DNA of 20,352 nt from a virus (IMGVR_UViG_3300010367_000170); one strand, 5' to 3'. Positions 5,621-20,352 are shown, numbered from the stretch's first letter. The notes: a model not told the origin generated them from the letters alone. Numbers and translations are program-made.

Positions 5621-5668
5621 TACAGTTCCCTCCTTGTTTGTGGCGGAGGGAGAAGGCAACGCGGTGAC

Positions 5669-5778
5669 GCCCGAGATCCAGTCAGCTGCGGTGACACCGA
5701 CCGGCGAACCGGACGGTTTCAGGGGTTGAACCTGACCTTGTAAGGATTACCGAAGTAACCGCAGCTTACGCACCGGGC
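5669..5778 (-). ncRNA. Y-RNA-like gene A (T-arm plus UUCG hairpin, no clear D arm)
   Basis: Terminal helix GCCCG-GUGCGUAAGCUGCGG / CCGCAGCUGACUGGAUCU-CGGGC, shared UACUUC linker, T-arm UCAGG-UUCAACC-CCUGA; directly upstream of rsr. Confidence 0.75.
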
Positions 5779-5792
5779 ATCGGCGCGTTTCC

Positions 5793-5932
5793 CCTCCCGA
5801 GATCCAAACGGCTGCGGTCAGCTAGGGCAGGATTCGAACCTGCGACCTTTCCGCTCGCGCGGAACGCTCTACCAACTGAGCTACCCGGATGGTTGTTGTA
5901 TCCGAAGTAACCGCTGCCTACGCACCGGGAGG
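5793..5932 (-). ncRNA. Y-RNA-like gene B (D arm, GNRA-capped arm, T arm in normal tRNA order)
   Basis: Same terminal motifs GGUGCG and UGGAUCUC. Inner GCUC-AGUUGGUA-GAGC, UUCCGC-GCGA-GCGGAA, GCAGG-UUCGAAU-CCUGC. Confidence 0.8.
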
Positions 5933-5943
5933 TGCGTGTTTAG

Positions 5944-6033
5944 TTATTCGCCCTTGCAGCAGCCGCACTCGCCGCAGTGCATCGCCAGGCCGCAGTTGCA
6001 GCCCCAAGGACGCCATCTGATCCAGAACTTCAT
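5944..6033 (-). CDS. 29-aa Cys-rich micropeptide MKFWIRWRPWGCNCGLAMHCGECGCCKGE
   Basis: ATG preceded by GGAGGAGAAGC; 6 Cys; fits exactly in the gap between Y RNAs B and C. Confidence 0.5.
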   Translation of the reverse strand: MKFWIRWRPWGCNCGLAMHCGECGCCKGE

Positions 6034-6060
6034 GCTTCTCCTCCAGGCTTCGAACTGAAA

Positions 6061-6167
6061 TCCCCTGAGATCAAGTCGGTGACGGGGTGCCCAGCCAATG
6101 GGCCACCCCCGCGAGGTGGGGGTGTTTGGATTCGAACCGAAGTATCCGTCACTGTCGCACCAGGGGA
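6061..6167 (-). ncRNA. Y-RNA-like gene C (YrlA-like; short T-arm, closed acceptor-like hairpin, D arm)
   Basis: UCCCCUG-GUGCG / UGAUCUC-AGGGGA ends; GG-UUCGAAU-CC; CACCCCC/GGGGGUG hairpin; GCCC-AUUGGCU-GGGC. Confidence 0.8.
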
Positions 6168-6186
6168 AAGCTTGTTCGGTTGTGGC

Positions 6187-6328
6187 GGTCCTGAGTTCCA
6201 AGACGGCTTTGGGCTTACGTCCGTTGCTCTACCAGATTGAGCCACCGTCCGAGGGTGCCGGACGGGCTGGATTTGAACCAGCAACCCACGGCTCCAAGAG
6301 AAGTATCCAATGCCTACGCACCAGGACC
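6187..6328 (-). ncRNA. Y-RNA-like gene D (YrlA-like circularly permuted tRNA module)
   Basis: T arm GCUGG-UUCAAAU-CCAGC, then 7-bp acceptor-like CCGUCCG/CGGACGG closed by a loop, then UG-GCUC-AAUCUGGUA-GAGC D arm; terminal motifs conserved. Confidence 0.85.
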
Positions 6329-6340
6329 GCAAAGGTTTTG

Positions 6341-6482
6341 GCCTGCCAGAGATCCAAACGACTTGGGTAACGTTGACGTGCTGTCCATTACACCACCACC
6401 CCACGAGTGGGGTGGGCCGGAATCGAACCGGCACCTCCGGATCCGTATTCCGAAGTAACCCATGTCTGCGCACCTGGCAGGC
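6341..6482 (-). ncRNA. Y-RNA-like gene E (YrlA-like circularly permuted tRNA module)
   Basis: GCCUGCCAG-GUGCG / UGGAUCUC-UGGCAGGC ends; GCCGG-UUCGAUU-CCGGC; CCACCCC/GGGGUGG closed acceptor-like stem; D-like GUGU-AAUGGAC-AGCAC. Confidence 0.85.
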
Positions 6483-6550
6483 GCGTTGTTGTTCACCCCT
6501 GAACGGGGTGCGCCGTCTCCCGGATCGGGGGGGACGGGAGACGACGCGGG

Positions 6551-6625
6551 TAGCGGCGACGGGATTTGAACCCGCGATCTTCAGATTGAAAGTCTGACGA
6601 GCTTTCCAGACAGCTCCACACCGCC
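6551..6625 (-). tRNA. tRNA-Glu (TTC)
   Basis: Full cloverleaf; TCAGA-CT-TTC-AA-TCTGA; T loop TTCAAAT. Confidence 0.93.
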
Positions 6626-6754
6626 TTGCATGTCGGGTACCGAATCTCCGACTCCCTGGCCAACGAACGACTCCCTACCCTCACGGGCAGCCAGGCCCTT
6701 ACGCAGCTCTGCCGGTCCCTCCAACACCCGTGAACCCTTGTTGGAGGGACCAGG

Positions 6755-6828
6755 AGCCGTCACCGAGGTTCGAACTCGGAACACGTTCTTACCAAGAACG
6801 TAGCGTTGCCAGTTACGCCCACAACGGC
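6755..6828 (-). tRNA. tRNA-Thr (GGT)
   Basis: Cloverleaf; CGTTC-TT-GGT-AA-GAACG. Confidence 0.9.
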
Positions 6829-6968
6829 TTGTCCCGCGCACCCAACTGAACCGACTCCCCGTAGGGGTCTGCTCCACACCTGAACTTGTGCTCACCGGCG
6901 CGGGACGGTGAGCGTGCGCCTCAGACTGGTTCAGATGGCAACTTCTTACCGGCTGTTCCGCTCGCCGG

Positions 6969-7103
6969 TCACGGCTTCTTGCTCTTCTGCTGGCCTACCT
7001 TGCTCCAGGACACACCGGGGACCGGCATGCCACCCGGGAACAGGTGCGGGAACTTCCGTGCCCGCGCCAACATCTTCTTGCGCTTGTTCCGGCTGTAACT
7101 CAC
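6969..7103 (-). CDS. 44-aa highly basic small protein MSYSRNKRKKMLARARKFPHLFPGGMPVPGVSWSKVGQQKSKKP
   Basis: GTG preceded by AGGAGGAGGAGAA; lies in a tRNA-free gap; K/R-rich with no acidic residues. Confidence 0.6.
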   Translation of the reverse strand: MSYSRNKRKKMLARARKFPHLFPGGMPVPGVSWSKVGQQKSKKP

Positions 7104-7124
7104 TTCTCCTCCTCCTCTGTAACC

Positions 7125-7214
7125 GGGCTGGATCCCCGCAGGAGTCGAACCTGCCCTAGGAGTTGACGCAGGTTATCGGCCTACGCCGCTGGCCCTTCAG
7201 CTAAGGTCCAGCCC
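7125..7214 (-). ncRNA. Atypical tRNA-like element (CC-GAT-AA loop, long variable region, extended bulged acceptor helix)
   Basis: T arm GCAGG-TTCGACT-CCTGC; GTAGG-CCGATAA-CCTGC; ends GGGCTGGACCTT/GGGGATCCAGCCC pair over about 12 bp. Confidence 0.5.
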
Positions 7215-7216
7215 TG

Positions 7217-7288
7217 TACCGCACGCGAGACTTGAACTCGCAGAACCTGCTTGGAAGGCAGGCGGGTTGCCAATTACCCCAGTGCGGC
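7217..7288 (-). tRNA. tRNA-Gly (TCC)
   Basis: Cloverleaf; CCTGC-CT-TCC-AA-GCAGG. Confidence 0.92.
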
Positions 7289-7389
7289 ACACCCACCGTC
7301 CCCAGTTTCTGTGGGGGCGGGTGGTGCAGCAGACTTTGCGCTCAGGCGTCTACCGGTCCTGCTTCTTCCCCTCCGAGGAGGGACGCGCG

Positions 7390-7464
7390 TAGTCCGTACG
7401 GGATTTGAACCCGTGGTCTTCACCTTGAGAGGGTGACGAGATAGGCCAGCTACTCCAACGGACC
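7390..7464 (-). tRNA. tRNA-Glu (CTC)
   Basis: Cloverleaf; TCACC-CT-CTC-AA-GGTGA. Confidence 0.92.
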
Positions 7465-7469
7465 TCGCG

Positions 7470-7542
7470 CTGCGTCGGCAGGCTTCGAACCTGCATTGTC
7501 CAAGTTCAAAGCCTGGGGTCCTGCCAGTTAGACGACGACGCA
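7470..7542 (-). tRNA. tRNA-Gln (TTG)
   Basis: U1-A72, G73; CCAGG-CT-TTG-AA-CTTGG. Confidence 0.92.
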
Positions 7543-7547
7543 TAGCG

Positions 7548-7621
7548 CTGCACTGTCAGGATTCGAACCTGAAACCACCCGATTCAGAGCCGGGAGCGCT
7601 GCCAGATTGCGCCACAGTGCA
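7548..7621 (-). tRNA. tRNA-Gln (CTG)
   Basis: U1-A72, G73; CCCGG-CT-CTG-AA-TCGGG. Confidence 0.92.
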
Positions 7622-7897
7622 TTGCGCGGACTTCGGTCTGAGCCGTCCGCTGAGCCCGATGGACTTCACGCGTAGCCGTCTGCCCTGGGGTCTGGCTTGG
7701 CCGTATACCCCATTAGGCGACCTGTTCAACATACCGGCCCGTACGTCCGGCACCTCCGGGGATAACCCTCCAGGCGCTTCCCAGCCTCCCGGTCTTAGCG
7801 CGACCGGTAGTAACAGCTCCACGGCTCAAATCCCTGTCAGGATCCCCTGTCATAAGCGTGCAGGACTCTGGCCTCGACATGGGCCAGGCTGCGCGCG

Positions 7898-7978
7898 TGG
7901 GAGTGGTAGGTGTCGAACCTACAATGCTCGAAAGCGCGGGCTTTACAGGCCCGCTGGCAGACCGCTGCACTCACTCCC
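7898..7978 (-). tRNA. tRNA-Tyr (GTA)
   Basis: CGGGC-CT-GTA-AA-GCCCG; long variable arm GCT-TTCG-AGC. Confidence 0.9.
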
Positions 7979-8020
7979 GAAACCCCTTACGGGGCCGGTG
8001 TTGACGTTCCTCGCTAGGTG

Positions 8021-8099
8021 AAGCCCGGAGCGGAGTCGAACCGCTATCCACGCGCTTTGCAGGCGCGCTCTAGATACCGTCTAGATGAGGACCCGGGCA
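8021..8099 (-). tRNA. tRNA-Cys (GCA), atypical D arm
   Basis: CGCGC-CT-GCA-AA-GCGCG, U73. D region contains TCTAGA-CGGTA-TCTAGA; 1:72 mismatch. Confidence 0.75.
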
Positions 8100-8190
8100 A
8101 CGGAGCCGTCCGCCCGGTCCAGCCACGGTCAGCCTCCGAGGGGGTGGAGGCAATATCGGCAGCTTGCGCATCGGACCGGTACGGACGACG

Positions 8191-8262
8191 TGCCTCCGGT
8201 GGGATTCGAACCCACGTCGAACCACTTAGAAGGTGGTCTCCCATCCTCTGGGCGACGGAGGC
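8191..8262 (-). tRNA. tRNA-Arg (TCT)
   Basis: Cloverleaf; ACCAC-CT-TCT-AA-GTGGT. Confidence 0.9.
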
Positions 8263-8403
8263 GAGCGGGTCCACCGTCCTCAGATCCCCCGCCGTCGCTA
8301 GGGATTGTTCGATTCGCGGTGGACCCTAAAGTCCAGGAGGGGGAGGTACGTGGGCCGCTGGCCACGGTAGGCCACGCTTCTCGGCCAGTCCCTTCTGGAC
8401 TTG

Positions 8404-8477
8404 CGCTCGTGACGGGACTTGAACCCGTGACCTCCTGATTGACAATCAGGTGCCCTAACCGTCTGGGCCACACGAGC
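8404..8477 (-). tRNA. tRNA-Asp (GTC)
   Basis: CCTGA-TT-GTC-AA-TCAGG; G73. Confidence 0.93.
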
Positions 8478-8509
8478 CGGACGCAGGCGAACCTGCGCTT
8501 TTGTTCTAC

Positions 8510-8632
8510 CTAGTTCCCCTTCGTGCAGGTGTGCGGTCCCTTCCTGAGGCACACGATGTGCGAGTGGACAGCGCAAGCGAAGCACCCGCACGAACACATA
8601 CAACGCCTAGCCAGCAACAACAGATGTTTCAT
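8510..8632 (-). CDS. 40-aa Cys/His-rich micropeptide MKHLLLLARRCMCSCGCFACAVHSHIVCLRKGPHTCTKGN
   Basis: ATG preceded by GGAGGGAGGAGAAG; 7 Cys and 4 His; fills the gap between tRNA-Lys and tRNA-Asp and is followed by a UUCG hairpin. Confidence 0.5.
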   Translation of the reverse strand: MKHLLLLARRCMCSCGCFACAVHSHIVCLRKGPHTCTKGN

Positions 8633-8647
8633 CTTCTCCTCCCTCCG

Positions 8648-8719
8648 TGCGCCGCGAGGGTGTCGAACCCCCGACCCCTCCGTTAAGAGCGGAGTGCTCT
8701 ACCGTTGAGCTAGCGGCGC
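8648..8719 (-). tRNA. tRNA-Lys (CTT)
   Basis: CTCCG-CT-CTT-AA-CGGAG. Confidence 0.93.
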
Positions 8720-8832
8720 AGGTGAAGCAGGGGCCTGAGTTGAACAGGCCAGCGGGCCGTCGCCCTTTTCTCCTAAGGAACCCACCAAGGGTGCGCGGGA
8801 ATCGAACCCGCCACTGCCGGTTCCCTGCCTCG

Positions 8833-8904
8833 CAGGTCGCCAGGGACTTGAACCCTGTTCCACGGATTAAAAGTCCGTTACATAGCCATACATGCTCGCG
8901 ACCC
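8833..8904 (-). tRNA. tRNA-Lys (TTT)
   Basis: ACGGA-CT-TTT-AA-TCCGT; G73. Confidence 0.88.
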
Positions 8905-9038
8905 ATAAGCCCCACCATTCCGCAGTCAAGAGGAAGGCGGGGAACATTGGGGCCAGGCCAGGGTTCAACCCTTCCCGGAAGCACGGGGTTCGTACGGCCC
9001 AGCCAGGAACAGCCCGGATCAGGGGCTGCTGCTCCAAG

Positions 9039-9113
9039 TAGCGGGGACAGGATTTGAACCTGCGATCTCTGGATTATGAGCCCAGCGGGGACACCGAACT
9101 CCCCCACCCCGCG
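9039..9113 (-). tRNA. tRNA-Met (CAT), initiator-like
   Basis: CGCGGGG 5' end with C1:U72 mismatch; CTGGG-CT-CAT-AA-TCCAG. Confidence 0.88.
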
Positions 9114-9135
9114 TCGGCGCGGCGAACCGCGCTCG

Positions 9136-9207
9136 TGTCCTCGACAGGAATTGAACCTGCGCGCCCCGGGCTTCAACCGGATGCTCTTCCAACTGAGCTA
9201 CAAGGAC
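9136..9207 (-). tRNA. tRNA-Phe (GAA)
   Basis: TCCGG-TT-GAA-GC-CCGGG. Confidence 0.9.
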
Positions 9208-9359
9208 GTTGCCCGCCTACTGAATCAGTGCCGTACCCAAAGGACGTGTCCGGAGATCTCCTCCGGCTCTACAACAGCGGGCCGCATACAACGCACTCCA
9301 AAGGTATGCGAGCTTTGGCCGTCGTCAACGCCCCATCGGTGAGGCGTTGAGCGTGTGCG

Positions 9360-9430
9360 AGCCCTTGGCGGGAATCGAACCCACGTTGCCTCCCTGGCAA
9401 GGAGGTGTCTTGCCGCTAGACGACAAGGGC
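9360..9430 (-). tRNA. tRNA-Gly (GCC)
   Basis: CCTCC-TT-GCC-AG-GGAGG; U73. Confidence 0.93.
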
Positions 9431-9540
9431 GAACATCGTCCGGTAGGTGGTCCCGCTACCGCCACAAACACGGAAACGCGTACGGGCCGTGTTCCGCCAC
9501 CCCTTACCGCCCGTTCAGACCGGACGATGAATTTACTGCG

Positions 9541-9614
9541 AGCCCTGAGCCGGGGTCGAACCGGCGACCTCCGTTTTACGAGAACGGCGCTACTTCCAAC
9601 TGAGCCACCAGGGC
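9541..9614 (-). tRNA. tRNA-Thr (CGT)
   Basis: CCGTT-CT-CGT-AA-AACGG. Confidence 0.92.
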
Positions 9615-9699
9615 GCGGCAGCTGTTGCACAGGGGAACTGCCTACCCCTTCACCACCCCCATCACGGCCTGTCCTCCAACGGCCGTGACGGTTAGTGCG

Positions 9700-9771
9700 T
9701 AGCCCCACCGGGATTCGAACCCAGGCCTGCACCTTCGGAGGGTGCTGCGCTGTCCGCTGCGCTATGGGGCT
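9700..9771 (-). tRNA. tRNA-Arg (CCG)
   Basis: GCACC-CT-CCG-AA-GGTGC. Confidence 0.92.
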
Positions 9772-9908
9772 GTGTTGACCAACTCTCTTACAAGGTTAAG
9801 GCTCTGACTAGGCGCCATACAGCCTTGTAGAGAGGCGGGGGAGGCCACCCACCCTGATCCCGCATTGTCCGCAGCCCCTCGCCGGTCAAGGCTACTCACT
9901 GCGGCATG

Positions 9909-9981
9909 CTGTCCCAGCAGGGTTCGAACCTGCGACCTGAGGATTAACAATCCACTGCTCTGCCTACTGAGCTATAGGACA
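9909..9981 (-). tRNA. tRNA-Asn (GTT)
   Basis: GTGGA-TT-GTT-AA-TCCTC (one mismatch); G73. Confidence 0.9.
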
Positions 9982-10108
9982 ACGCCCCGCAAAGTTGCGC
10001 ACCCTCGCGGGGTTGTTGAGATGGGCGGGAACTGAACCAGCCTCTGAGCCTGCCGATTCGGGCGCCCCTAGTTCTCAGTTCTTAAGGGTCCGCTATTCCC
10101 ATCTCTCG

Positions 10109-10181
10109 TGCGTCTACAGGGACTCGAACCCCGAACCTGCTGGGTGTAGGCCAGCTGCTCTTCCAATTGAGCTACAGACGC
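10109..10181 (-). tRNA. tRNA-Val (TAC) with C33
   Basis: GCTGG-CC-TAC-AC-CCAGC; otherwise canonical cloverleaf. Confidence 0.85.
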
Positions 10182-10277
10182 TCCCGGGAGGGGGCAGCGC
10201 CGAACGCGCTGCCCTAGTCCTCCCTTGTAGGTATACCGGGCCTGGGGTATACCAGCCCAGGTGATCGACACTTGCCC

Positions 10278-10346
10278 GTGAGGCGGCTGGAATCGAACCA
10301 GCTTCGGGAGTCTTCGCGAAACCCTACGTAACCAACGTCCACCTCC
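10278..10346 (-). pseudogene. Degenerate tRNA-like element, TC-GCG-AA loop (Arg GCG-like)
   Basis: Perfect T arm GCTGG-TTCGATT-CCAGC; 6-bp acceptor; short D arm ACGT-TGGTT-ACGT; C33. Confidence 0.5.
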
Positions 10347-10400
10347 AGCGGGTAGCGAACCCGCCTTCACCGGGTTCAGGACGCGTTCCTGAGTACCGGC

Positions 10401-10476
10401 TGGTGTCCCCGGGAGGAATCGAACCTCCAACCTCCTGATTCGTAGTCAGGTGCCCTATCCGTTGGGCCACGGAGAC
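10401..10476 (-). tRNA. tRNA-Arg (ACG), CCA encoded
   Basis: CCTGA-CT-ACG-AA-TCAGG; ends A-CCA. Confidence 0.95.
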
Positions 10477-10635
10477 ATGACGATTATCGCAGGCCAGGAA
10501 CCGTCGCCCGGTAGTAGCGCAAGATCCATTTGCGCCCTGCTTGTCACGCACATTCGCAGCAAAATCAGGGGACACCCTGGGGTACTTGGGATAACCGGAG
10601 GTGTTGCTGCCCGGAGCGTGACCGCACCGTTCCCG

Positions 10636-10704
10636 TGGTCAGTGCGGGATTCGAACCCGCATCCAGTCACAAGTGGACCCGCTCAGCCGTTGAGCTACCT
10701 GACC
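10636..10704 (-). pseudogene. tRNA-like element with aberrant anticodon arm (GGTC-CACTTGT-GACT)
   Basis: Canonical D arm (GCTC-AACGGCT-GAGC) and T arm, 6/7 acceptor pairs; 4-bp anticodon stem, no U33. Confidence 0.6.
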
Positions 10705-10714
10705 CTGCTGTACG

Positions 10715-10786
10715 TGGAAATGAAGGGACTCGAACCCTTGACCCGACCGGCACATATCCGGCGCTCTGCCGCTGAGCTACATCCCC
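10715..10786 (-). tRNA. Non-canonical tRNA: Ala-type acceptor (G3:U70, A73) with AT-ATG-TG anticodon loop
   Basis: GGGGATG/CATTTCC-A acceptor; canonical D and T arms; CCGG-ATATGTG-CCGG. Confidence 0.65.
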
Positions 10787-10901
10787 TAGGTGGCCGGGCT
10801 GTACGGGACTTACCGGCCGTGCATGCTGCCGCTGACAGAAGCGTTCCCGTCTGGTTCCTGGCGTACCGGCAATCTAAGGCACCGACGTCCCGTCACCATT
10901 G

Positions 10902-10975
10902 TGCTCACAGAGGGATTTGAACCCTCACTTGCGGCGGTTTGAGCGCCGTGCCTCTGCCGATTGGGCTACGTGAGC
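10902..10975 (-). tRNA. tRNA-Leu (CAA), short variable loop
   Basis: CGGCG-CT-CAA-AC-CGCCG; variable region only CAAGT; A73. Confidence 0.9.
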
Positions 10976-11083
10976 TGGAAGCGCAGTCCCGTGCGGGAGG
11001 AGAAGTCACCGCACGGGACTACTTACTCCAAGACCTTTGCTGCCGCCGGAGGAAAGCCTGTAAGCCGACAGGTCTCGGAGTCG

Positions 11084-11157
11084 TTGCCACGGCTGGATTC
11101 GGACCAGCGACATACGCCTTATCAGAGCGCTGCTCTACCAGGCTGAGCTACGTGGCA
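11084..11157 (-). tRNA. tRNA-Ile (GAT)
   Basis: GCGCT-CT-GAT-AA-GGCGT; T-loop variant TCCGAAT. Confidence 0.88.
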
Positions 11158-11278
11158 TTGTCGGACGGCCTGCGCGAGGCAGGCCACCGACGTCTACGTT
11201 CATTTACATCATCGTCGCTGTTGAGTTCTCAAGGTTCCAGGAGCTTCGTGCCGACGTACAGCGCGCTCCAAACGTGCG

Positions 11279-11349
11279 CGTCCTTGAAGGGATTCGAACC
11301 CTCGCTTGCCCACCAGGAACTGGGCGCTCTACCGTTAAGCTACAAGGAC
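11279..11349 (-). tRNA. tRNA-like, probably Arg(CCT)-derived, with an irregular 8-nt anticodon loop
   Basis: Perfect acceptor GTCCTTG/CAAGGAC, D and T arms; CCCA-GTTCCTGG-TGGG. Confidence 0.55.
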
Positions 11350-11363
11350 ACCTTGTTCAGTTG

Positions 11364-11426
11364 TACGGGGACCGGAGTCGAACCGGAACCTCAGCCGTGC
11401 ACTGCTACTCTCCCACCCGGACCCGC
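11364..11426 (-). pseudogene. Highly degenerate tRNA-like remnant
   Basis: T arm CCGG-TTCGACT-CCGG and a partial acceptor GCGGG/CCCGT; D and anticodon arms are poor. Confidence 0.35.
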
Positions 11427-11524
11427 TTGGCAGGCCCGTTTTCCCCTCGCGGGGACACCCAACCAGTTCGGACCTGGCGGTTCCGGCGTTGAAACTCCAC
11501 GGGCCAACAGGGTCGTCGCCTTCG

Positions 11525-11580
11525 TGGACCCAGAGGGTTTCGAACCCTCCCACGCGCGTCAGCCCCCAGGGCTTGGGCCC
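11525..11580 (-). ncRNA. 56-nt mini-tRNA: full acceptor with G3:U70 and A73 plus T arm, no anticodon arm
   Basis: GGGCCCA/TGGGTCC-A; GAGGG-TTCGAAA-CCCTC; only one small hairpin (AGCCC-TGG-GGGCT) between them. Confidence 0.55.
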
Positions 11581-11611
11581 GTATTCAGTTGTTGGCTCCG
11601 TCCTACCGGAG

Positions 11612-11684
11612 GGTGATGTGCGGGAATCGAACCCGCTGCTGCCTGGATCACAACCAGGTCCCCGACCGGAGGGGCTACACCACC
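11612..11684 (-). tRNA. tRNA-His (GTG)
   Basis: G-1:C73 pair; CCTGG-TT-GTG-AT-CCAGG. Confidence 0.88.
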
Positions 11685-11690
11685 AAGAGG

Positions 11691-11771
11691 TCTCGCCAGA
11701 GATCCAAGGCGACTCCGGATCTGAATTCATTCCCAAAACGAAGGAACCGGGGTCATGCGCACCTGGCGAGA
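11691..11771 (-). ncRNA. Y-RNA-like gene F (minimal: terminal helix only, no tRNA module)
   Basis: UCUCGCCAG-GUGCGCAUGACCCCGG-UUCCUUC ... CCGGAGUCGCCUUGGAUCUC-UGGCGAGA; same motifs as copies A-E. Confidence 0.7.
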
Positions 11772-11790
11772 TCTGTGAAGTTTTAGGTTG

Positions 11791-11939
11791 TGCATCCCCC
11801 AGAGGTCCAGTCGATCAGGCGATCGTAGGCGCTCTGCCGCTGAGCTACAGTCCCGGTTTCCCGGCACCGGCAGGATTCGAACCTGCGACATCCCGCTTAA
11901 AAGGCGAAGAACTCCTGGTCTGCGCACCTGGGGGGTGCA
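11791..11939 (-). ncRNA. Y-RNA-like gene G (complete four-arm permuted tRNA with a Lys UUU-type anticodon loop)
   Basis: CCCCCAG-GUGCG / UGGACCUC-UGGGGG ends. UUCGC-CUUUUAA-GCGGG, AUGUC, GCAGG-UUCGAAU-CCUGC, GAAA-closed acceptor-like helix, UA-GCUC-AGCGGCA-GAGC. Confidence 0.82.
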
Positions 11940-12936: not shown

Positions 12937-13151
12937 CACTGCTCCTCCGGGAAGACTATGGTGACGACTGCCGATGCAACCAGGCGTTCGACCTCTGCCA
13001 TGAGGTCGAACCATTGGTCGTCGGTCAGCCAGTTGTTCTCTGGAATCTCGGCCAGCGTGTCATTGGCGGGGAACGGCGCGTTGAGACGGTTGAGGATCAC
13101 CAGCCGAGCTAGCTGCTGAACGCGCAGCGGAGCAATATCAGAAGGCGCCAT
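12936..13151 (-). CDS. Hypothetical protein (71 aa, MAPSDIAPL...)
   Basis: Start chosen at the ATG overlapping the end of the HAD gene; coupled to the downstream gene. Confidence 0.55.
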   Translation of the reverse strand: MAPSDIAPLRVQQLARLVILNRLNAPFPANDTLAEIPENNWLTDDQWFDLMAEVERLVASAVVTIVFPEEQ

Positions 13152-13758
13152 CAGCGACCTGGAAGCAAGCCAGTCCCAGTTTCCGCCACAGGTACACGCA
13201 GCGGTCACGGTCGTCCAGGACCAGGTGCGGATGCCAGAGGTCCCGGACGTGTTTGTCGAAGAGTTCCAGCTTCACGATGTCGTCACCGCGCCGGTCCCCT
13301 CCGGGGCGCATGTGCAGCTCGTCATACGGAACCTGGAACTTCTTCAGCCACCGCTCCGTGTGGGGCCGGTACTCCTCTTGGCGGCCGGACAGCAGGATGA
13401 TCCGCTGGCCGTCTCTGCGGAACAAGTCCAGGGCGTAGACGACCTGCTTGTACTCGGTGTCGGTTTCGACCTTGTCGAAGTCGTACGGGCCACGGTTGGT
13501 GTGCAGGGCCAGGGTGCCGTCGATGTCGCAGACGATAGCTGGGGGCTGCCCGTTGAACTCGTACGTCCTGGCGAACTCCACATCGACGGCGAGGCCGGTG
13601 AACCTGTGGCTGGGCTCTGTGGCGATGATGGCGCTGCGGGCGTCGTTCTCCACGTCCGTGATGCGACGGGAGACGCCGGGGAGCAGGTGCCTGCCGGTCT
13701 GAACCTTCCAGGCCCACTCCACGCCGTCGGAGTCCACGGTGACGGTGTAGTCGCTCAC
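13138..13758 (-). CDS. HAD-family phosphatase of the Pnkp 3'-phosphatase type with a short N-terminal extra domain
   Basis: DIDGTL (DxDxT), LLSGR, LHMRP..DRRGDDIVKLEL, DDRDRCVYLWRKLGL: motif order as in the C-terminal domain of T4-type polynucleotide kinase/phosphatase. No P-loop. GTG overlaps the upstream TGA. Confidence 0.85.
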   Translation of the reverse strand: MSDYTVTVDSDGVEWAWKVQTGRHLLPGVSRRITDVENDARSAIIATEPSHRFTGLAVDVEFARTYEFNGQPPAIVCDIDGTLALHTNRGPYDFDKVETDTEYKQVVYALDLFRRDGQRIILLSGRQEEYRPHTERWLKKFQVPYDELHMRPGGDRRGDDIVKLELFDKHVRDLWHPHLVLDDRDRCVYLWRKLGLACFQVADGAF

Positions 13759-13988
13759 TTGTACATCCATGTCCACTCGGAGGCGTTTGGATCCCACTCC
13801 ACGTCCAGGCTGTAACACTCTCCGTTGAAGGCCCACTCCACGGAATAGGACGCGCCTTCTTCATCGACGTCGGGGCAGACGGCGAAGCCGAGAGAGTGTG
13901 AGCGGTTCAGCAGCGCCGCAAGGTCTTTGGCGACAAGAGCGGCGCTTACGGCAACGTGCTGCTGAAAGTTCTCTCTGATATCGCTCAT
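13755..13988 (-). CDS. Hypothetical protein (77 aa, MSDIRENF...)
   Basis: ATGA overlap upstream and GTGA overlap downstream. Confidence 0.6.
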   Translation of the reverse strand: MSDIRENFQQHVAVSAALVAKDLAALLNRSHSLGFAVCPDVDEEGASYSVEWAFNGECYSLDVEWDPNASEWTWMYK

Positions 13989-14478: not shown

Positions 14479-15009
14479 CTACGACTTCGTAGGAGAAGGG
14501 TCCGGCGTGCGGTTCCCCGTGGCCGTAGGCGCACTAGTAGGGGTAGGCGTGGGGGCCGGGCTGGTAGCGGTTGCAGGAGGCTGAGAGGAAGGCTTAGAGG
14601 TGGGATCAGGGGTAGGTGACGGCATGGGGGACGGCTTGAACGTCGGAGACGGCTTGGAAGTCGTAGAGGGTGGAGACGGCTTCGAATAGGTCGGAGACAC
14701 CGGCCGGTAAGTAGGGTGCGCCGGAACCGTGGAGGTCATCGCCGGAGAAGTTGGTTTGGGCGGCTGTGCCGGTCTTGTTGTCGCGCGGATCGCGGAGCTG
14801 ACCGATGTTGGCTGTGACGACGGCGTGAACACGGTCCCGCTCGAATACGGGTACGGGGTTGCCGGGTTAGCTCTGTGCGGAGGAGTACCGAATGCCACTG
14901 CCGCCAGCGCGACAGCGGACGCTCCGGCTATCGCGGAACAGACCACGGCCAGGGTGCCGTTCGCGGCCCGGCGCCTACGCGGAGGGGGGTAGTGAACGGT
15001 GGTTTCCAT
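14479..15009 (-). CDS. Membrane-anchored Pro/Ser/Thr-rich protein (176 aa)
   Basis: ATG 15009 with GGAGG SD; RRRR followed by a hydrophobic helix, then a low-complexity PST tail. Confidence 0.6.
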   Translation of the reverse strand: METTVHYPPPRRRRAANGTLAVVCSAIAGASAVALAAVAFGTPPHRANPATPYPYSSGTVFTPSSQPTSVSSAIRATTRPAQPPKPTSPAMTSTVPAHPTYRPVSPTYSKPSPPSTTSKPSPTFKPSPMPSPTPDPTSKPSSQPPATATSPAPTPTPTSAPTATGNRTPDPSPTKS

Positions 15010-15112
15010 AGTGCTTTCCTCCGGGCTCTCCCGAGGGGTCCAGATGTCGTCCACGGCTTTCCTCCGTTGGGTTAGGCGGGCAGGTGTGCGGCGACTCGCC
15101 GCCTATATAGGT

Positions 15113-15182: not shown

Positions 15183-15257
15183 ACTCCTAAAGCTGCCCCG
15201 GAAGGACAGCCTGACGTGGGCCAACACCACAAGAAAACCCGACCTGAGGAGAAGCGA

Positions 15258-16679
15258 ATGGGCGGAAAGAAAGACCTGGAAGATCTCGCCAGCCAGGTCG
15301 CAGCAACACCGGGCTGGGAGTCCGACAAGACCACCTCCGGACACTGGCAGTTCACCAGCCCCGGTAATGAGCAAGTCATCGTCAGCTACACCCCCGGCAG
15401 CATCCGAACCCTGGCCAACGCCAAGGCCGAACTGCGCCGCAAGGGCTGGGATGAGGAAGCCGCCAAACGCGCCAAGGACGACAAGCGCGTGGAACGTCTG
15501 GCCGCCGACAAGGAGCTGGAGGCCAAGATGATGGACGCCGCCCTGAAGAAGGCCGCATCAGAGGCTCTGAAGAAGGCGTCCGAGGACGACCTGGAGCAGC
15601 AGCTCCTGCAAGCGGAAGCGGTCAAGCCGAACCCCGTCGTCAACCCGTTCCTGGCAGCGCCGGTGGCGCTCGCCAACATGATCAAGCCGGAGGAACATAT
15701 GGCACCCAACAAGCACTCCAACCCGTTCCCCGCCTCCGCGCGGGACCGGGACAAGCCCGGCCTGTACTGGGTGACGCCGGACATGGCTGACAAGGCTCTG
15801 GAGAAGGGGCCGTGCCGTCAGCGCACCGTCTACGACACCAACGTGGCCAAGATCAAGAAGGCCATGGAGACCGGCCGTTTCCTGGAGAACGAGGTGGACC
15901 GCATCGCCTTCGACATCCACGGCTGCTGCTCCAACGGCCAGCACCGGCTGTTCTCCGTCCTCGACGCCGACCCGGACCAGCTGGCCAAGCACTACCCCAA
16001 CGGGGTACCGATGCACGTCGTGTTCGGGATCGACCCGGAAGACATCGACGTGATCGACACCGGCCGGTCCCGGTCCGTCAAGGACGCCCTGGACGTGGAC
16101 GGGCTGCCCGAGTTCGGCAACAACGGCTCCGCCGTCCTGCGGCTCATCATGAACTACGACTCCGGCGTGCCGTGGACCGGCTGGAACCACAACGTGTGGA
16201 CCAACGACGAATTCCGCGCCGCTGCCCGTGGCGGACTGAGGGACGTCAAGGACTACCTGGCGTACTCCCAGAAGCTGAACCGCAAGGCCAAGCTGGTCAA
16301 GACCGTGGGCGCTGCCGCATCGTTCCTGATGGACCGGGACAACCCGGAAGGCGGTGGCAAGGAACACCCGGAGCGCACCAACGAGGAGTTCTGGGCCGGA
16401 GTGTGCTTCGAAGTCGCCTTGGAGCCGGACGACCCCCGTGCCGCGCTGTACAAGTTCCTGACCAACCTGAAGGACGACAGGAACCGCAAGGTGCCCACCC
16501 CCGTCATCCTGGGCCACGTGCTGCGGCAGTACGCCAACTGGCACCTGAACATGTCCATCGTCAACTCCCGGCAGGACGACGACTGGCCGATGCCGCAGGT
16601 GTGGCAGCCCGGGATGCGGTTCATCAACGGACAGCTGCGGCACCCGCAGCGGGTCGTGAACAACCGCACCAAGAAGTAA
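15258..16679 (+). CDS. Fusion of an N-terminal HicA-like domain and a ParB/Srx-like (xGQHRL) domain
   Basis: 'GWESDKTTSGHWQFTSPGNEQVIVSYTPGSIRTLANAKAELRRKGW' is HicA-like; 'VTPDMA..RQR..V..I...M..G.F..IAFD..G..SNGQHRL' is ParB-N-like. Start 15258 has SD GAGGAGAAG. Confidence 0.7.
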   Translation: MGGKKDLEDLASQVAATPGWESDKTTSGHWQFTSPGNEQVIVSYTPGSIRTLANAKAELRRKGWDEEAAKRAKDDKRVERLAADKELEAKMMDAALKKAASEALKKASEDDLEQQLLQAEAVKPNPVVNPFLAAPVALANMIKPEEHMAPNKHSNPFPASARDRDKPGLYWVTPDMADKALEKGPCRQRTVYDTNVAKIKKAMETGRFLENEVDRIAFDIHGCCSNGQHRLFSVLDADPDQLAKHYPNGVPMHVVFGIDPEDIDVIDTGRSRSVKDALDVDGLPEFGNNGSAVLRLIMNYDSGVPWTGWNHNVWTNDEFRAAARGGLRDVKDYLAYSQKLNRKAKLVKTVGAAASFLMDRDNPEGGGKEHPERTNEEFWAGVCFEVALEPDDPRAALYKFLTNLKDDRNRKVPTPVILGHVLRQYANWHLNMSIVNSRQDDDWPMPQVWQPGMRFINGQLRHPQRVVNNRTKK

Positions 16680-16737: not shown

Positions 16738-16777
16738 AGCCGTCCGCCGGACCCGGACGGCCACGCGACGCGGTGAC

Positions 16778-17686
16778 CTACACGGTCACCGCGTCGTTGC
16801 GCTTCTCCCGGACGGAGACGGCGCGGTCAAGTTCCTCATCGGCGGTACCGCAGTCGGTGACCTTGGTTCGGAAGTACGAGACCACGCTGATCCGCTCGGC
16901 GCCGCAGTCCTTGCAGTACTTGTCCAGGACGTTCCCGCAGGCGCAGACGATAGCTGTGTTCCCGTGGAATTCGTGCGCATCCATCAGGATCAGGTCCCCG
17001 TCCTGAAGATCCACCGCGACCCGGTACTCCGGGAACGTCAGACGTCCTCCCGTGAACTCCCCTCGCCGGATACAGGCGATAGTGGAGAACCCCTTGTCCA
17101 AGTCCCCCTTGTCGGTGTGGACGCCGGTCGGGTAGGTGTTGTTGACGGTGACGGTGGAGAACGGAGTGCCCGGTACCACCCACTCCGGCTTGGAGGCTTT
17201 TGCTTCAGCGAGCTGGTTGGCGTACCGGTCCGGGACGTACTCCTCCAGGTACCTGGCGACCTGGATCAGGAACGGCTGGAGGTTCTTCCATTGGGGCAGG
17301 TTGTCGCCGGTCCAGGCGGTCAGGCGGCAGTAGCGGTAGATCCCTCCGGGGTCAATCGCGCCGATGATCGCAGAGGGCACGTCTTTGGCGTAGGTGCGGT
17401 TCTGGCCGTTGCGCTTGACGCGGACGCTACCGGCGGCCATGCCCCGGTTCTTGCTGACAGCGTTCCAGAGGCTGTGGAGGATCGTATACACCTCATCGGT
17501 GACGACGTCCTTCATGGCTCCGGGCAGGTACACGCACAACGGCGAACCGTTCGGTTTGCGGACGTACGCCGGTCCGGTCAGCAGGATGTTGTAGTCGGCA
17601 TCAGTGAGGATCTTCGCGATCTTCTCATCCATCTCCTGCTTCGAGATCTTCGAACGCAGACGGATGTCAACGAGAGGGACGCTCAC
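16778..17686 (-). CDS. TET/JBP-family 2-oxoglutarate/Fe(II) dioxygenase (302 aa)
   Basis: NRG..AG, RYCRLT, PFSTVTVNN..TGVHTDKGD (HxD), GGRLTFPEY, HEFHGNT (distal H), ERISVVSYFR. GTG overlaps the upstream TGA. Confidence 0.88.
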   Translation of the reverse strand: MSVPLVDIRLRSKISKQEMDEKIAKILTDADYNILLTGPAYVRKPNGSPLCVYLPGAMKDVVTDEVYTILHSLWNAVSKNRGMAAGSVRVKRNGQNRTYAKDVPSAIIGAIDPGGIYRYCRLTAWTGDNLPQWKNLQPFLIQVARYLEEYVPDRYANQLAEAKASKPEWVVPGTPFSTVTVNNTYPTGVHTDKGDLDKGFSTIACIRRGEFTGGRLTFPEYRVAVDLQDGDLILMDAHEFHGNTAIVCACGNVLDKYCKDCGAERISVVSYFRTKVTDCGTADEELDRAVSVREKRNDAVTV

Positions 17687-18231
17687 CGCAGCACCTCCAA
17701 AGCGGGCACAGCCTCCATCAAAACCTCCACCAGTTCCTGCGGGGTCCGCATAGCGTCCAAGTCCCAGCCGCCGATAGCGGCACGGAGGTTCGCCGCGCGG
17801 GTGCTGGCTCCCTGGACCCACTTCTCGTTCTGGTTGCTGCCACGTTTGCGGCGGCGTGCTTCCAGCTCCTGCCGGGTAGCGTCTAGATAGAACGTGTGCA
17901 CGTCGTATTCAGCTCCCCTCGCTGCCTCTAGGAAGCCGCGCGTGGCGAGCCTTGCCCCTTCGCCCAGGATGAGACGGTACGGAGCCGTACGCACCCAGGA
18001 GACAGCTTCTGGCTGGATACTCATCGATAGGGCGTCGGTACCGGAGAACGCTTCGCGGCGGCGGCCCAACTCGGCGCCTCGAAGCTTGTTGCCGTGGAAC
18101 AGGATGTCGTGCGGCACCTTCGCAGCCGACGACGCGGAGCGGTCGCAGTGTTTCGTCAACTCCGCCATCAGAGTGGACTTCCCCGCTCCAGGCGGCCCGT
18201 AGAAGTACACAAACGTCCCTGCGCCTACCAC
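17683..18231 (-). CDS. P-loop nucleotide/nucleic-acid kinase of the type linked to base-modification clusters
   Basis: Walker A GPPGAGKST, GTDALS, ILGEGARL, lid RRRKRGS. Confidence 0.8.
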   Translation of the reverse strand: MVGAGTFVYFYGPPGAGKSTLMAELTKHCDRSASSAAKVPHDILFHGNKLRGAELGRRREAFSGTDALSMSIQPEAVSWVRTAPYRLILGEGARLATRGFLEAARGAEYDVHTFYLDATRQELEARRRKRGSNQNEKWVQGASTRAANLRAAIGGWDLDAMRTPQELVEVLMEAVPALEVLR

Positions 18232-19028
18232 GAGTCCACCATCTCTTCCGCTTCCGCCGGAGCCAACGCGTAGCCGGTCCGGTGGTAGCCAGTCAGTACG
18301 TAATGGCCGTCCGGGTGTTGGAACGCGCGCGGTTCTGTCTGGATCCTCTGCCCGTACACCGGGGTCCAGCCGTTCTTCACCGCAATCCCCAACTCCTCCG
18401 CCAGACGCAGCATCTTGTGGGCCTGTTCCCTCGCGGCCTCTGCGGTGGTGGCGCTGGAGGAACCGAGACGGGCGCTGCCTCCGACGACTCCGGCGGTGAG
18501 GGTCTTGTACGGCGCCATGTGGTGAACCCGCAGGGTGTACTCGTTCAATGCCGACTTGTGAGCAACCCAGGTAACGCCGTGGGTGATCTTGCCTTTGCCG
18601 GTGGACGACCCGATAGCCATCACTACCTTGTCGCCGGTGAACTCCTTACCGTTCCTCAGCGTCACCTTGCGGCCGTCAGCTGACACGGCAATGCCTTTGA
18701 TAGCGAGCGCAGCGACTTCGATCAGAGGCTCAGCCGGGTCCAGCATCCGCCAGTCCTTGTCCAGTTTCAGGTTGGGGTTGCGGTACGACGTCACCAACGC
18801 GCCTTCCCGCATCTGCACCTTCCACTGCCGGTACAGCTCTATGCTGCGGTCCCACAGCTGAACATCCCGCCGGTCTTTGACGTGGTACCCGCGTCGCAGT
18901 ATCGCCGTCGCCGCGAGCGAACCAGCTGCCTGCCCGTCGGTGATGTGGGTGACGGCGTACCCCTTTGCCCAGCAGGCCCGCACAACGGAACATCCGGCGA
19001 TACCGGCTCCTACAACGATCACTTTCAT
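18225..19028 (-). CDS. FAD-dependent oxidoreductase (DAO/glycine-oxidase-like)
   Basis: N-terminal VIVVGAGIAG dinucleotide fold; C-terminal TGYHRTGYALAP. Confidence 0.85.
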   Translation of the reverse strand: MKVIVVGAGIAGCSVVRACWAKGYAVTHITDGQAAGSLAATAILRRGYHVKDRRDVQLWDRSIELYRQWKVQMREGALVTSYRNPNLKLDKDWRMLDPAEPLIEVAALAIKGIAVSADGRKVTLRNGKEFTGDKVVMAIGSSTGKGKITHGVTWVAHKSALNEYTLRVHHMAPYKTLTAGVVGGSARLGSSSATTAEAAREQAHKMLRLAEELGIAVKNGWTPVYGQRIQTEPRAFQHPDGHYVLTGYHRTGYALAPAEAEEMVDSW

Positions 19029-19894
19029 GTGCGCTCCAGGATCTTTCCGGTGTCGCGGTATGCGCGTTTACGGTTCGTATCGGTGTCGGTCCAGCCGTAG
19101 ATCTCGCCCAGGTACAGATGAGGGAGGGTGTGGAACCGGGCGTCCAGAGCGCGTCTGGTCCAGCCGGACTGCACGTCCAGGATCTGCCGCAGCATCTGGT
19201 CAATGTCGTGGCCCACGTAGTACCGGCCGGTAGCCAGGGAATGGAAGTCGCACAGAGTCGTCTCCACTTCCTCCACGGGGGCTTGGAGACCTTCCATCTC
19301 CAAACGAATCCGCACGATCTCCGAGACCTTGTCCAGCTCCCGAACTGTTTCCTTACCGTTTCCCCTGGGAAGGTTCGGCAGCAGCAGGTCCAGGCCCTGC
19401 CGGGGACCGGAGGAGTGGGCATGTCCCATGTCGGTGGCCCGGACCTGAACGTCGCAGACCTTCCACAGGATCTCTGCCGTCTTGTACGACGCCCAACGGC
19501 CGTTGCCCCAGATACCCAGCAGGGCGTCGTTGAGTTTCCCCCAGGCTTCACGCGGGTCGGCGGATCCCTGGAGGGCTCTGCTTATCCAGCCTTCCCATCC
19601 CCCTGGCATAGCCTCCACCTCTCGGAGCGCTCCGAGATGCCTCTGAAGCTTGCGGTCATCCCGGTGGCCACGGCGTTCCGTCGCGCACGGCAGAGGACCT
19701 GTCTCGCCCAGGAACGATGCCATCCCGGAACCCAGGTGGTAGTAGGCGATGTACCGCATCACCAGCCGGATACGGTCTTCCGGCGTCAGGTTGTCGTATT
19801 GGGACAGCTGTTTCAGCACAGGATAGGTGGGGTCCACGTCTCTGGTCTGCAACGCCAGATCGTGGAATCTGATGTAGTCCTCCCAGACGGACAT
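19025..19894 (-). CDS. Amino acid:DNA transferase / aGPT-pyrophosphorylase-like protein (HhH DNA-glycosylase-like fold)
   Basis: GNGRWASYKTAEIL (HhH-like) and EVETTLCDFHSLATGRYYVGHDID; context next to a kinase and TET/JBP. Confidence 0.75.
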   Translation of the reverse strand: MSVWEDYIRFHDLALQTRDVDPTYPVLKQLSQYDNLTPEDRIRLVMRYIAYYHLGSGMASFLGETGPLPCATERRGHRDDRKLQRHLGALREVEAMPGGWEGWISRALQGSADPREAWGKLNDALLGIWGNGRWASYKTAEILWKVCDVQVRATDMGHAHSSGPRQGLDLLLPNLPRGNGKETVRELDKVSEIVRIRLEMEGLQAPVEEVETTLCDFHSLATGRYYVGHDIDQMLRQILDVQSGWTRRALDARFHTLPHLYLGEIYGWTDTDTNRKRAYRDTGKILERT

Positions 19895-20352
19895 CAGACG
19901 GGGCTGCTGATGTGGTTGTAGTGGTTGCAGTGGTCGCAGTCTTTGCCGTGTTCGGCGCGGGCTGCGACGGTGAGCTTCAGGCCGCGTGCGGCCCGCAGCA
20001 GGATCTCGCCGTTGGTGAGGTCTCCGTTGGCGTCCAGGGAGGAGCGGAGACCGGCGAGGTGGCGGTGAAGCTCATCGTGGTCGTCCTGGGGGAGGATGAT
20101 CACGGTCTCGCGGATGCCGCGCGCGGCGAGGGATTCGCCGGATCCGAGTTCGGCGCGGGCTGCGGCTTGCTCCGGGGTTTCGGCGTACTGGGCTTCGGTG
20201 GCGACGTACGGGGTCTCAGCGACCTGGTCCAAAGCGGAGAGCAGGTCATCCAGGTCGTCCGCTTCCCAGCCGGTGCCGACGTAGTCGCCATCGAGCTGTT
20301 CCAGCAGGGCCGCCAGGGATTCGTCGTGGTATCCGGCGCGTTCGCCGATGCG
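19894..20352 (-). CDS. C-terminal part of a ParB-like nuclease-domain protein (5' end outside the window)
   Basis: Frame is open to the window edge: RIGERAGYHDESLAALLEQLDGDYVGTGWEADDLDDLL, a typical tail after phage ParB-N domains. Stop overlaps the next ATG. Confidence 0.6.
   Translation of the reverse strand, partial: RIGERAGYHDESLAALLEQLDGDYVGTGWEADDLDDLLSALDQVAETPYVATEAQYAETPEQAAARAELGSGESLAARGIRETVIILPQDDHDELHRHLAGLRSSLDANGDLTNGEILLRAARGLKLTVAARAEHGKDCDHCNHYNHISSPV

Follow-up and report, generated by a model that had tools for sequence, protein, structure and literature searches.

A five-gene phage operon predicted to hypermodify thymidine in finished DNA

In Pseudomonas phage PaMx11, biochemical work has established gp46 as a glycine:DNA transferase, gp47 as a flavin-dependent N-alpha-glycinylthymidine lyase and gp49 as a 5-hydroxymethyl-dU (5-hmdU) DNA kinase (PMC8989533), and the structures of gp46 (PUGT) and gp47 (NGTO) with DNA have been solved (Wen et al., NAR 2024, PMC11472151). 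Contigs that pair such genes with TET_JBP in place of a hydroxymethylase were already noted by Lee et al. 2021 (PMC8989533), and a published annotation calls the corresponding genes of Rhodococcus phage Tonitrus a 'thymidine hypermodification system' (PMC11955845). In parallel, phage 5mYOXs that have no neighbouring C5-methylase were found to be T-dioxygenases, one subclass of which requires a co-encoded ParB homologue that activates it and is linked to PF18751 kinases and to amino acid:DNA transferases (AADTs) (O'Toole 2026, PMC13229309). Here, we describe a cluster of five genes located at positions 16778-20352 of IMGVR_UViG_3300010367_000170, a stretch of 20,352 nucleotides of viral DNA that was analysed as a whole (hereafter "the window"), and we compare this cluster with these systems.

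We propose that this operon probably carries out a post-replicative hypermodification of thymidine, in which T is converted into 5-hmdU, then into 5-PmdU, then into N-alpha-glycinylthymidine (hereafter N-alpha-GlyT) and finally into 5-aminomethyl-dU (5-NmdU). We hold the class of this pathway with high confidence, and 5-NmdU as its final base with about even confidence. The proposal builds on the family membership, catalytic residues, folds, gene coupling and synteny that we establish below, together with the absence of any alternative source of 5hmU or 5-methylcytosine (5mC) in a sister genome. In the proposed mechanism, the TET/JBP dioxygenase, with the ParB-like protein of the same operon as its helper, would convert thymine in duplex phage DNA into 5-hydroxymethyl-dU, the P-loop kinase would phosphorylate the hydroxymethyl group to give 5-PmdU, and the AADT would displace the phosphate by an amino acid's amino group, glycine being the most likely donor, and so form N-alpha-glycinylthymidine. 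The gp47-like flavoenzyme would then oxidise the N-C-alpha bond of this adduct, with hydrolysis giving 5-aminomethyl-dU and glyoxylate. Since the route contains no acetyltransferase, a free amine is the predicted end product, and the modified base would protect the DNA against host nucleases.

A fully post-replicative route of this kind, from pyrimidine through hydroxymethyl, phospho and amino-acid adduct to flavin tailoring, had been suggested in an earlier, sequence-only reading of this stretch, and the family, residue, fold and sister-genome tests described here support it. The same reading had announced an uncharacterised hypermodified base, a view that we do not share: the AADT, the FAD enzyme and the kinase correspond to the gp46/gp47/gp49 set of PaMx11, for which both chemistry and structures have been published (PMC8989533, PMC11472151), and the chemistry is therefore not uncharacterised, each step having a characterised counterpart.

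Organisation of the operon

The cluster consists of five tightly coupled genes on the minus strand (16778-20352), all confirmed as real open reading frames, which encode, in operon order, a ParB-like protein, an AADT, a FAD enzyme, a P-loop kinase and a TET/JBP dioxygenase. Inspection of the sequence confirmed the overlapping stop and start codons that had been claimed for these genes, with overlaps of 1, 4, 7 and 4 bases in operon order (junctions TGATG, ATGA, GTGGTAG and GTGA). The four enzymes had also been named as such in the sequence-only reading, which missed the identity of the fifth gene, a ParB homologue (see PMC13229309). A perfect hairpin with a 12-bp stem lies across the stop codon of the TET/JBP gene (16767..16795, minus strand), as seen both in the sequence and by RNA folding (-31.4 kcal/mol; z of -3.74 against shuffled sequences), and it is likely the end of the transcription unit; the gene that follows is convergent and ends at 16679. 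No promoter-like sites were found inside the cluster. A perfect TTTACT-18-TAACGT candidate promoter site is present at L004:1283-1312, on the strand opposite the ParB-like gene and facing away from the operon, and no such site was found upstream of the ParB-like gene on the operon's own strand. The five genes form a single, tightly coupled transcription unit whose entry lies past the right edge of the window.

This arrangement is more than a product of chance, because eight other IMG/VR loci (L005, L006, L009, L011 and L013-L016), with proteins only 23-91% identical to those of the window, have their genes in the same order, ParB-AADT-FAD-kinase-TET. When the cluster and the whole window were compared with cultured phages by megablast, nothing relevant was found, and relatives were found at the protein level only.

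Family, residue and fold evidence for each protein

Pfam matches were judged against the curated cut-offs, which all four enzyme genes exceed. The P-loop kinase (182 aa; 17683..18231, minus strand) matches PF18751 (Ploopntkinase3) with 129.6 bits, for a cut-off of 27 (E 1.3e-37), and it belongs to phrog_800, which is also the PHROG of the assayed PaMx11 gp49. Alignment of a profile of window-type kinases with gp49 gave an hhalign probability of 94.6% (E 6e-8). The protein carries a Walker A motif (GPPGAGKS at residue 12), and its GTD (64) and EGxR (91) motifs are invariant. It had been stated that no canonical 5-hmU DNA kinase was visible in this stretch; on the contrary, the P-loop kinase is itself a member of that canonical marker family (5-HMUDK, PF18751), from which we expect that it would phosphorylate 5-hmdU in DNA.

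The AADT (aGPT-Pplase2; 289 aa; 19025..19894, minus strand) matches PF18724 (ADDT) with 62.3 bits, for a cut-off of 26.2 (E 7e-17), and shares phrog_6364 with PaMx11 gp46. In the family alignment, residues D24, Y47, Y51, E92, R94 and R97 of gp46 correspond to D21, Y48, Y52, E73, R75 and R78 of the AADT, and W146, K150, E243, T244, C247 and D262 to W134, K138, E211, T212, C215 and D230. The roles kept in this way include the nucleophile (C247), the metal ligands (E243/T244) and the contacts with glycine (W146/K150/D24), and the AADT is predicted to be a glycine:5-PmdU transferase. Although the glycine-contacting residues are conserved, the main argument for glycine as the putative donor is the pairing of this AADT with a gp47-type oxidase.

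The FAD enzyme (267 aa; 18225..19028, minus strand) matches the Pfam family DAO with 39.9 bits, for a cut-off of 27.9 (E 5e-10), and, over its full length, phrog_16743, the PHROG of gp47 (E 7e-25, residues 1-261). Since phmmer and profile searches matched gp47 over the dinucleotide-binding motif only, the link with gp47 rests on this PHROG, on hhalign (94% for the flavoenzyme profile against gp47) and on the fold: the best PDB matches of the AlphaFold model (pLDDT 87) are 8z79/8z2o, which are gp47 structures (TM 0.75-0.77), followed by glycine, sarcosine and iminodiacetate oxidases. A GxGxxG motif spans residues 7-12. The arginine with which gp47 binds the carboxylate, R242, has R228 as its aligned counterpart, while K268 and W51 of gp47 are replaced conservatively by R250 and Y48, and R210 of gp47 falls in a gap of the alignment. 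From this resemblance, the flavoenzyme is predicted to cut N-alpha-glycinylthymidine into 5-aminomethyl-dU and glyoxylate. We also considered tRNA as the target, given the likeness of the flavoenzyme to MnmC1 and the large array of tRNA genes in this phage; this was rejected because gp46 and gp47 bind double-stranded DNA and flip its bases (PMC11472151) and because the cassette always accompanies ParB and a DNA dioxygenase.

The last gene of the operon encodes a TET/JBP-family Fe(II)/2-oxoglutarate (2OG) dioxygenase, or 5mYOX (302 aa; 16778..17686, minus strand), that matches PF12851 (Tet_JBP) with 77.5 bits, for a cut-off of 34.9 (E 9e-22). Its start is the GTG at 17686 rather than the longest-ORF start at 17821, because the N-termini of homologues and the metagenome gene call agree on the former. 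Across 10 homologues, neither the iron triad (H190-x-D192 and H238/H241) nor R265, which binds 2OG, varies, and these residues line up with the HRD and TRIS motifs of TET2. No match was found when the protein was compared with the PDB by phmmer, and its profile gave marginal matches to TET2 only (E 0.16); the best PDB fold matches of its structural model are TET2, CcTet and NgTET1 (E 1e-10 to 1e-8, TMq 0.5-0.6). At the C-terminus, the invariant C279 precedes a helix (282-298); an extension past the last conserved Cys was described for ParB-dependent enzymes only (O'Toole 2026, PMC13229309). This dioxygenase combines three marks of the ParB-dependent T-dioxygenases, namely a ParB in the neighbourhood, the C-terminal extension and no neighbouring C5-methyltransferase. 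In addition, residues 75-128, which are poorly predicted in the model, coincide with the place of a variable insertion described in the same paper. Its closest relative in a cultured phage, gp18 of Pelagibacter phage HTVC112P, is also encoded directly after a ParB-like gene (gp17/gp18). On this basis, it is predicted to be a thymine-to-5hmU dioxygenase acting on DNA.

A CxC-x7-CxxC insert, which may be a zinc knuckle, occupies residues 248-261 of this protein (window 16905-16946, minus strand), between the distal iron His and the 2OG Arg. This Cys4 insert occurs in the window and in L005, L006, L017 and L019; the L009-L016 branch, which is of the same dioxygenase lineage, lacks it.

The first gene of the operon, encoding the ParB-like protein, runs off the right edge of the window (19894..>20352, minus strand), so that the C-terminal 152 of 242 residues lie inside it and the N-terminal 90 residues past the edge. 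The part inside the window matches the ParB-like phrog_620 and phrog_723, and a full-length copy on L004/L003, which is identical to the window's part over the overlap, matches PF02195 (ParB_N) with 31 bits, for a cut-off of 26.3. A ParB gene precedes the cassette in 18 of the 18 related IMG/VR loci as well as in Gordonia phage Wooper, Tonitrus and Phelemich, and the ParB-like protein is predicted to be the activator of the dioxygenase. Prediction of a complex between the two proteins gave a score of 0.53 (median of three runs), when the best of 3 controls reached 0.00; at least 65% of contacts are common to the runs, and the partner has a pLDDT of at least 75. The mark that this score passes was also passed by 58 of 80 solved complexes and by 2 of 110 mismatched pairs, and a passing score of 0.60 or less was seen in only 7 of the 80 solved complexes plus both passing mismatches. 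The modelled complex backs the pairing weakly.

In a sister phage, a gene for a fusion of ParB_N with an N6/N4 DNA methylase lies directly upstream of the cassette's ParB gene (L005:7906-9276); the same place on the window's contig holds small divergent genes only.

Source of the hydroxymethyl group and alternatives

The window, with a GC content of about 63%, belongs to an uncultured high-GC soil phage that is actinobacterial. A 91.6-kb JGI metagenome contig, of which about 35 kb were inspected, encodes an AADT identical to that of the window. That this is a phage follows from a portal gene located 10 kb to the left of the window in the contig's gene list and, in the window, from 27 tRNA genes, a Ro60/TROVE gene and a PNKP-type phosphatase gene. 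Past the right edge of the window, the contig ends after about 4.2 kb and encodes, upstream of the ParB-like gene, small divergent genes and an AAA ATPase only. The genes beyond this edge had been proposed as a place to look for a methylase or a kinase, and the contig's gene list shows no methylase, hydroxymethylase or second kinase there. More generally, no member of the families PF00303, PF00145 or PF00583 appears in the gene lists covering 4.7 kb on the right and 10 kb on the left, and the window itself contains neither a C5-methylase nor a homologue of the gp48-type GNAT.

As a proxy for the whole genome, we used a sister phage (G001, the IMG/VR record L005), which is complete (102.9 kb; direct terminal repeats) and, starting at about 9.3 kb, runs collinear with the window; its cluster is about 79% identical at the nucleotide level and encodes proteins that are 67-91% identical to those of the window. 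This complete genome gave no match to PF00303 (ThyA-like), PF00145 (C5-methylase) or PF00583 (GNAT), three families that do match in positive-control genomes. PF00303 gave no match in four other related records either, and a TET/JBP gene is present in all five related records that were searched, the sister phage included. The absence of ThyA-family, C5-methylase and GNAT genes from the sister genome argues for a substrate that is thymine in finished DNA and for a route that has no acetylation step. Neither of the two additional enzymes of a PaMx11-type 5-AcNmdU pathway, a GNAT and a dUMP hydroxymethylase, was found in the window, in its flanks or in the sister genome.

Several points weigh against the proposed pathway. 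All enzymatic activities are deduced from family membership, and the glycine donor, the end product, the biological role, the ParB dependence of the dioxygenase and its preference for T are likewise inferences. Pairwise identity with the PaMx11 enzymes is only about 20-25%, and BLASTP matches to gp46, gp47 and gp49 are weak (E 7e-6, 3e-5 and 0.04, respectively), which is why the assignments were tested further by profile, fold and residue alignment. The model of the dioxygenase is of moderate confidence (pLDDT 69, with residues 75-128 poorly predicted), and the protein belongs to phrog_24024, when the cassettes of cultured actinophages carry phrog_6059. The wedge residue Y180 of gp47 has no aligned counterpart in the flavoenzyme. 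The donor used by the AADT is unreadable from its sequence, as those known in the family vary (glycine, serine, putrescine and 1,3-diaminopropane; PMC8989533, PMC13458397), and it is only the analogy with the sister genome that excludes a hydroxymethylase, acetyltransferase or other tailoring gene in the remaining ~67 kb of the contig. These last two points make the proposal weakest at the glycine donor and at the end product.

The alternative that survives best keeps the same class of pathway with another end product, either from a donor other than glycine or from the tailoring of 5-NmdU by an unlinked gene, in which case the base is perhaps not yet catalogued; we consider this unlikely. Besides the diversity of donors and the 67 kb that lie outside the inspected part of the contig, it is favoured by differences in the leaving-group pocket of gp46, whose residues K261, E265 and H95 are replaced by H, Q and G in the window's AADT, and by the combinatorial nature of these cassettes, as a GNAT is inserted in some loci and a 305-aa protein replaces the flavoenzyme in L017-L022. 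However, a gp47-type flavoenzyme with a carboxylate-binding Arg fits an N-linked alpha-amino acid, and N-C-alpha oxidation of any such adduct would still give 5-NmdU; moreover, the glycine-contacting residues equivalent to W146, K150 and D24 are kept in the AADT and the sister genome has no GNAT.

A second alternative is that 5-hmdU is made before replication by a dUMP hydroxymethylase encoded elsewhere in the genome, the TET/JBP protein being redundant or otherwise employed. Most characterised thymidine-hypermodifying phages (PaMx11, M6 and ViI) do use a ThyA-like hydroxymethylase (PMC8989533), and the part inspected here represents about 35 kb of a 91.6-kb contig. This route is nevertheless very improbable when set against a complete and collinear sister genome in which PF00303 finds nothing, control genomes in which it does, a TET/JBP gene kept in five of five related records and the translational coupling of the dioxygenase gene to the kinase gene.

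We give hardly any credence to a dioxygenase acting on 5-methylcytosine in a cassette that builds a cytosine hypermodification: although phage 5mYOX clades A and B oxidise 5mC, assayed T-dioxygenases also do so in vitro (PMC13229309) and the sister phage encodes its ParB_N-N6/N4 methylase fusion beside the cassette, no C5-methylase was found in the window, the flanking gene lists or the complete sister genome, an N6/N4 methylase does not make 5mC, the kinase, the AADT and gp47-type enzymes are known on thymidine derivatives only, and the ParB-linked 5mYOXs assayed to date are T-dioxygenases (PMC13229309).

Several other genes surround the operon. The convergent gene next to the dioxygenase gene (15216-16679, plus strand) encodes a protein of 473-487 aa that matches phrog_5931 and phrog_2089 only, with no match in Pfam, NCBIfam or the PDB, and its position is kept in L005. 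Weak homologues (E about 1e-6) lie a few kb from the cassette in L017, L019 and L020, and a link of this protein with the modification system is possible. It was considered as a second ParB-like partner, a candidacy that was rejected when hhalign against a ParB alignment, Pfam, NCBIfam and the PDB all came back blank. Between the cassette and the tRNA array, the minus strand encodes a 191-aa protein that is rich in Pro, Ser and Thr and has a hydrophobic N-terminal segment (14479-15054), and a PNKP-type HAD phosphatase that is devoid of a kinase domain (13138-13836; PF25109, E 2.5e-46). Further left (3998-11939, minus strand), the array of 27 tRNA genes (5816-11683) lies beside the Ro60/TROVE-VWA gene (3998-5659).

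Related cassettes and comparison with described systems

Cassettes related to this operon differ mainly in their tailoring genes and in their dioxygenase. A GNAT gene was confirmed between the AADT and flavoenzyme genes in L008 and L009, which gives these two loci the full PaMx11 enzyme set, and a gap of matching size exists at this position in L010-L016. Mycobacterium phages Phelemich and Reprobate (gp1-gp5) encode the same five families as the window. In Wooper, Tonitrus and L017-L022, the flavoenzyme is replaced by an unrelated, conserved protein of 290-320 aa (L001:3054-3926, L002:3761-4642 and L017-L022, where it has 305 aa), which is encoded between the AADT and the kinase or, in Wooper and Tonitrus, after the kinase. 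This protein matches nothing in Pfam or among the PHROGs; the idea that it is a diverged gp47-type enzyme was rejected, hhalign showing no similarity and Pfam being blank, and it is a candidate for a tailoring function. A comparison of L001, L002, L007, L008, L022 and L023 with the window, L005, L006 and L009-L020 showed two distant TET/JBP lineages, each with a fixed position of its own in these cassettes: phrog_6059 lies directly after ParB, and phrog_24024 after the kinase or further downstream. Both lineages occur with and without the flavoenzyme.

The operon is of an already described kind and 5-aminomethyl-dU is itself a characterised nucleoside. No new biological question arises beyond those of Lee 2021 and O'Toole 2026. 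What is added is a well-resolved example of a TET-initiated, acetyltransferase-less thymidine hypermodification in an uncultured actinobacterial phage, in the form of a compact set of five genes predicted to make 5-aminomethyl-dU from ordinary T in finished DNA, together with the finding that two distant dioxygenase lineages fill two alternative positions in otherwise homologous ParB-AADT-kinase cassettes. If the prediction is true, DNA with a reactive primary amine would be of interest for enzymatic DNA labelling. It is possible, if on the doubtful side, that the end base is new as a final mark of virion DNA, either as a charged 5-aminomethyl-dU made post-replicatively at sequence-specific T or as an adduct from another donor, and that a second dioxygenase lineage (phrog_24024, with the Cys4 insert and last in the operon) was independently recruited under ParB control.

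Compared with the gp46-gp49 pathway of PaMx11 to 5-AcNmdU (Lee et al., NAR 2021/22, PMC8989533), the window shares the PHROGs of the AADT, the gp47-type flavoenzyme and the kinase, in an order (AADT-FAD-kinase) that is that of gp46-gp47-(gp48)-gp49, and it keeps the catalytic residues of gp46 and the fold of gp47. The two systems differ in that PaMx11 has the acetyltransferase gp48, without which the window's route is predicted to stop at 5-NmdU, and in that PaMx11 obtains its 5-hmdU from a dUMP hydroxymethylase (gp51), whereas the window would use TET/JBP and ParB on finished DNA. Their hosts also differ, that of PaMx11 being Pseudomonas and that of the window a high-GC actinobacterium.

The ParB-dependent T-dioxygenases of 5mYOX clade C1 (for example 5mYOX176/ParB176; PMC13229309) resemble the window's dioxygenase in having a ParB homologue in the operon, no C5-methylase, a PF18751 kinase and a PF18724 AADT among the linked genes, an extension at the C-terminus and TET2 as best structural match, a likeness of features rather than one read from a tree. 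Unlike these examples, the window's dioxygenase is encoded by the last gene, three genes away from ParB, and it has the Cys4 insert, which is missing from some members of its lineage.

Among cultured phages, Phelemich, which we compared on its genes alone, has the window's families (ParB, TET/JBP, AADT, phrog_16743 flavoenzyme and PF18751 kinase), with an AADT that is 39% and a flavoenzyme that is 43% identical to the window's. In Phelemich, Reprobate, Wooper and Tonitrus, however, the dioxygenase is of phrog_6059 and directly follows ParB in a cassette that abuts the terminase, whereas that of the window is of phrog_24024 and comes last, and Wooper and Tonitrus have the unrelated protein, of 290 aa, instead of the window's flavoenzyme.

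Finally, the synthesis of base J by JBP1/JBP2 in trypanosomatids provides a precedent for the order of events proposed here, as a TET/JBP enzyme hydroxylates T in DNA post-replicatively and the resulting 5hmU is then derivatised (PMC13229309). Base J is made by glucosylation, whereas the window's route would proceed by phosphorylation and amino-acid transfer, and the JBPs include DNA-binding or SWI2/SNF2 domains of their own and lack a ParB partner, whereas the window's dioxygenase is encoded together with one.

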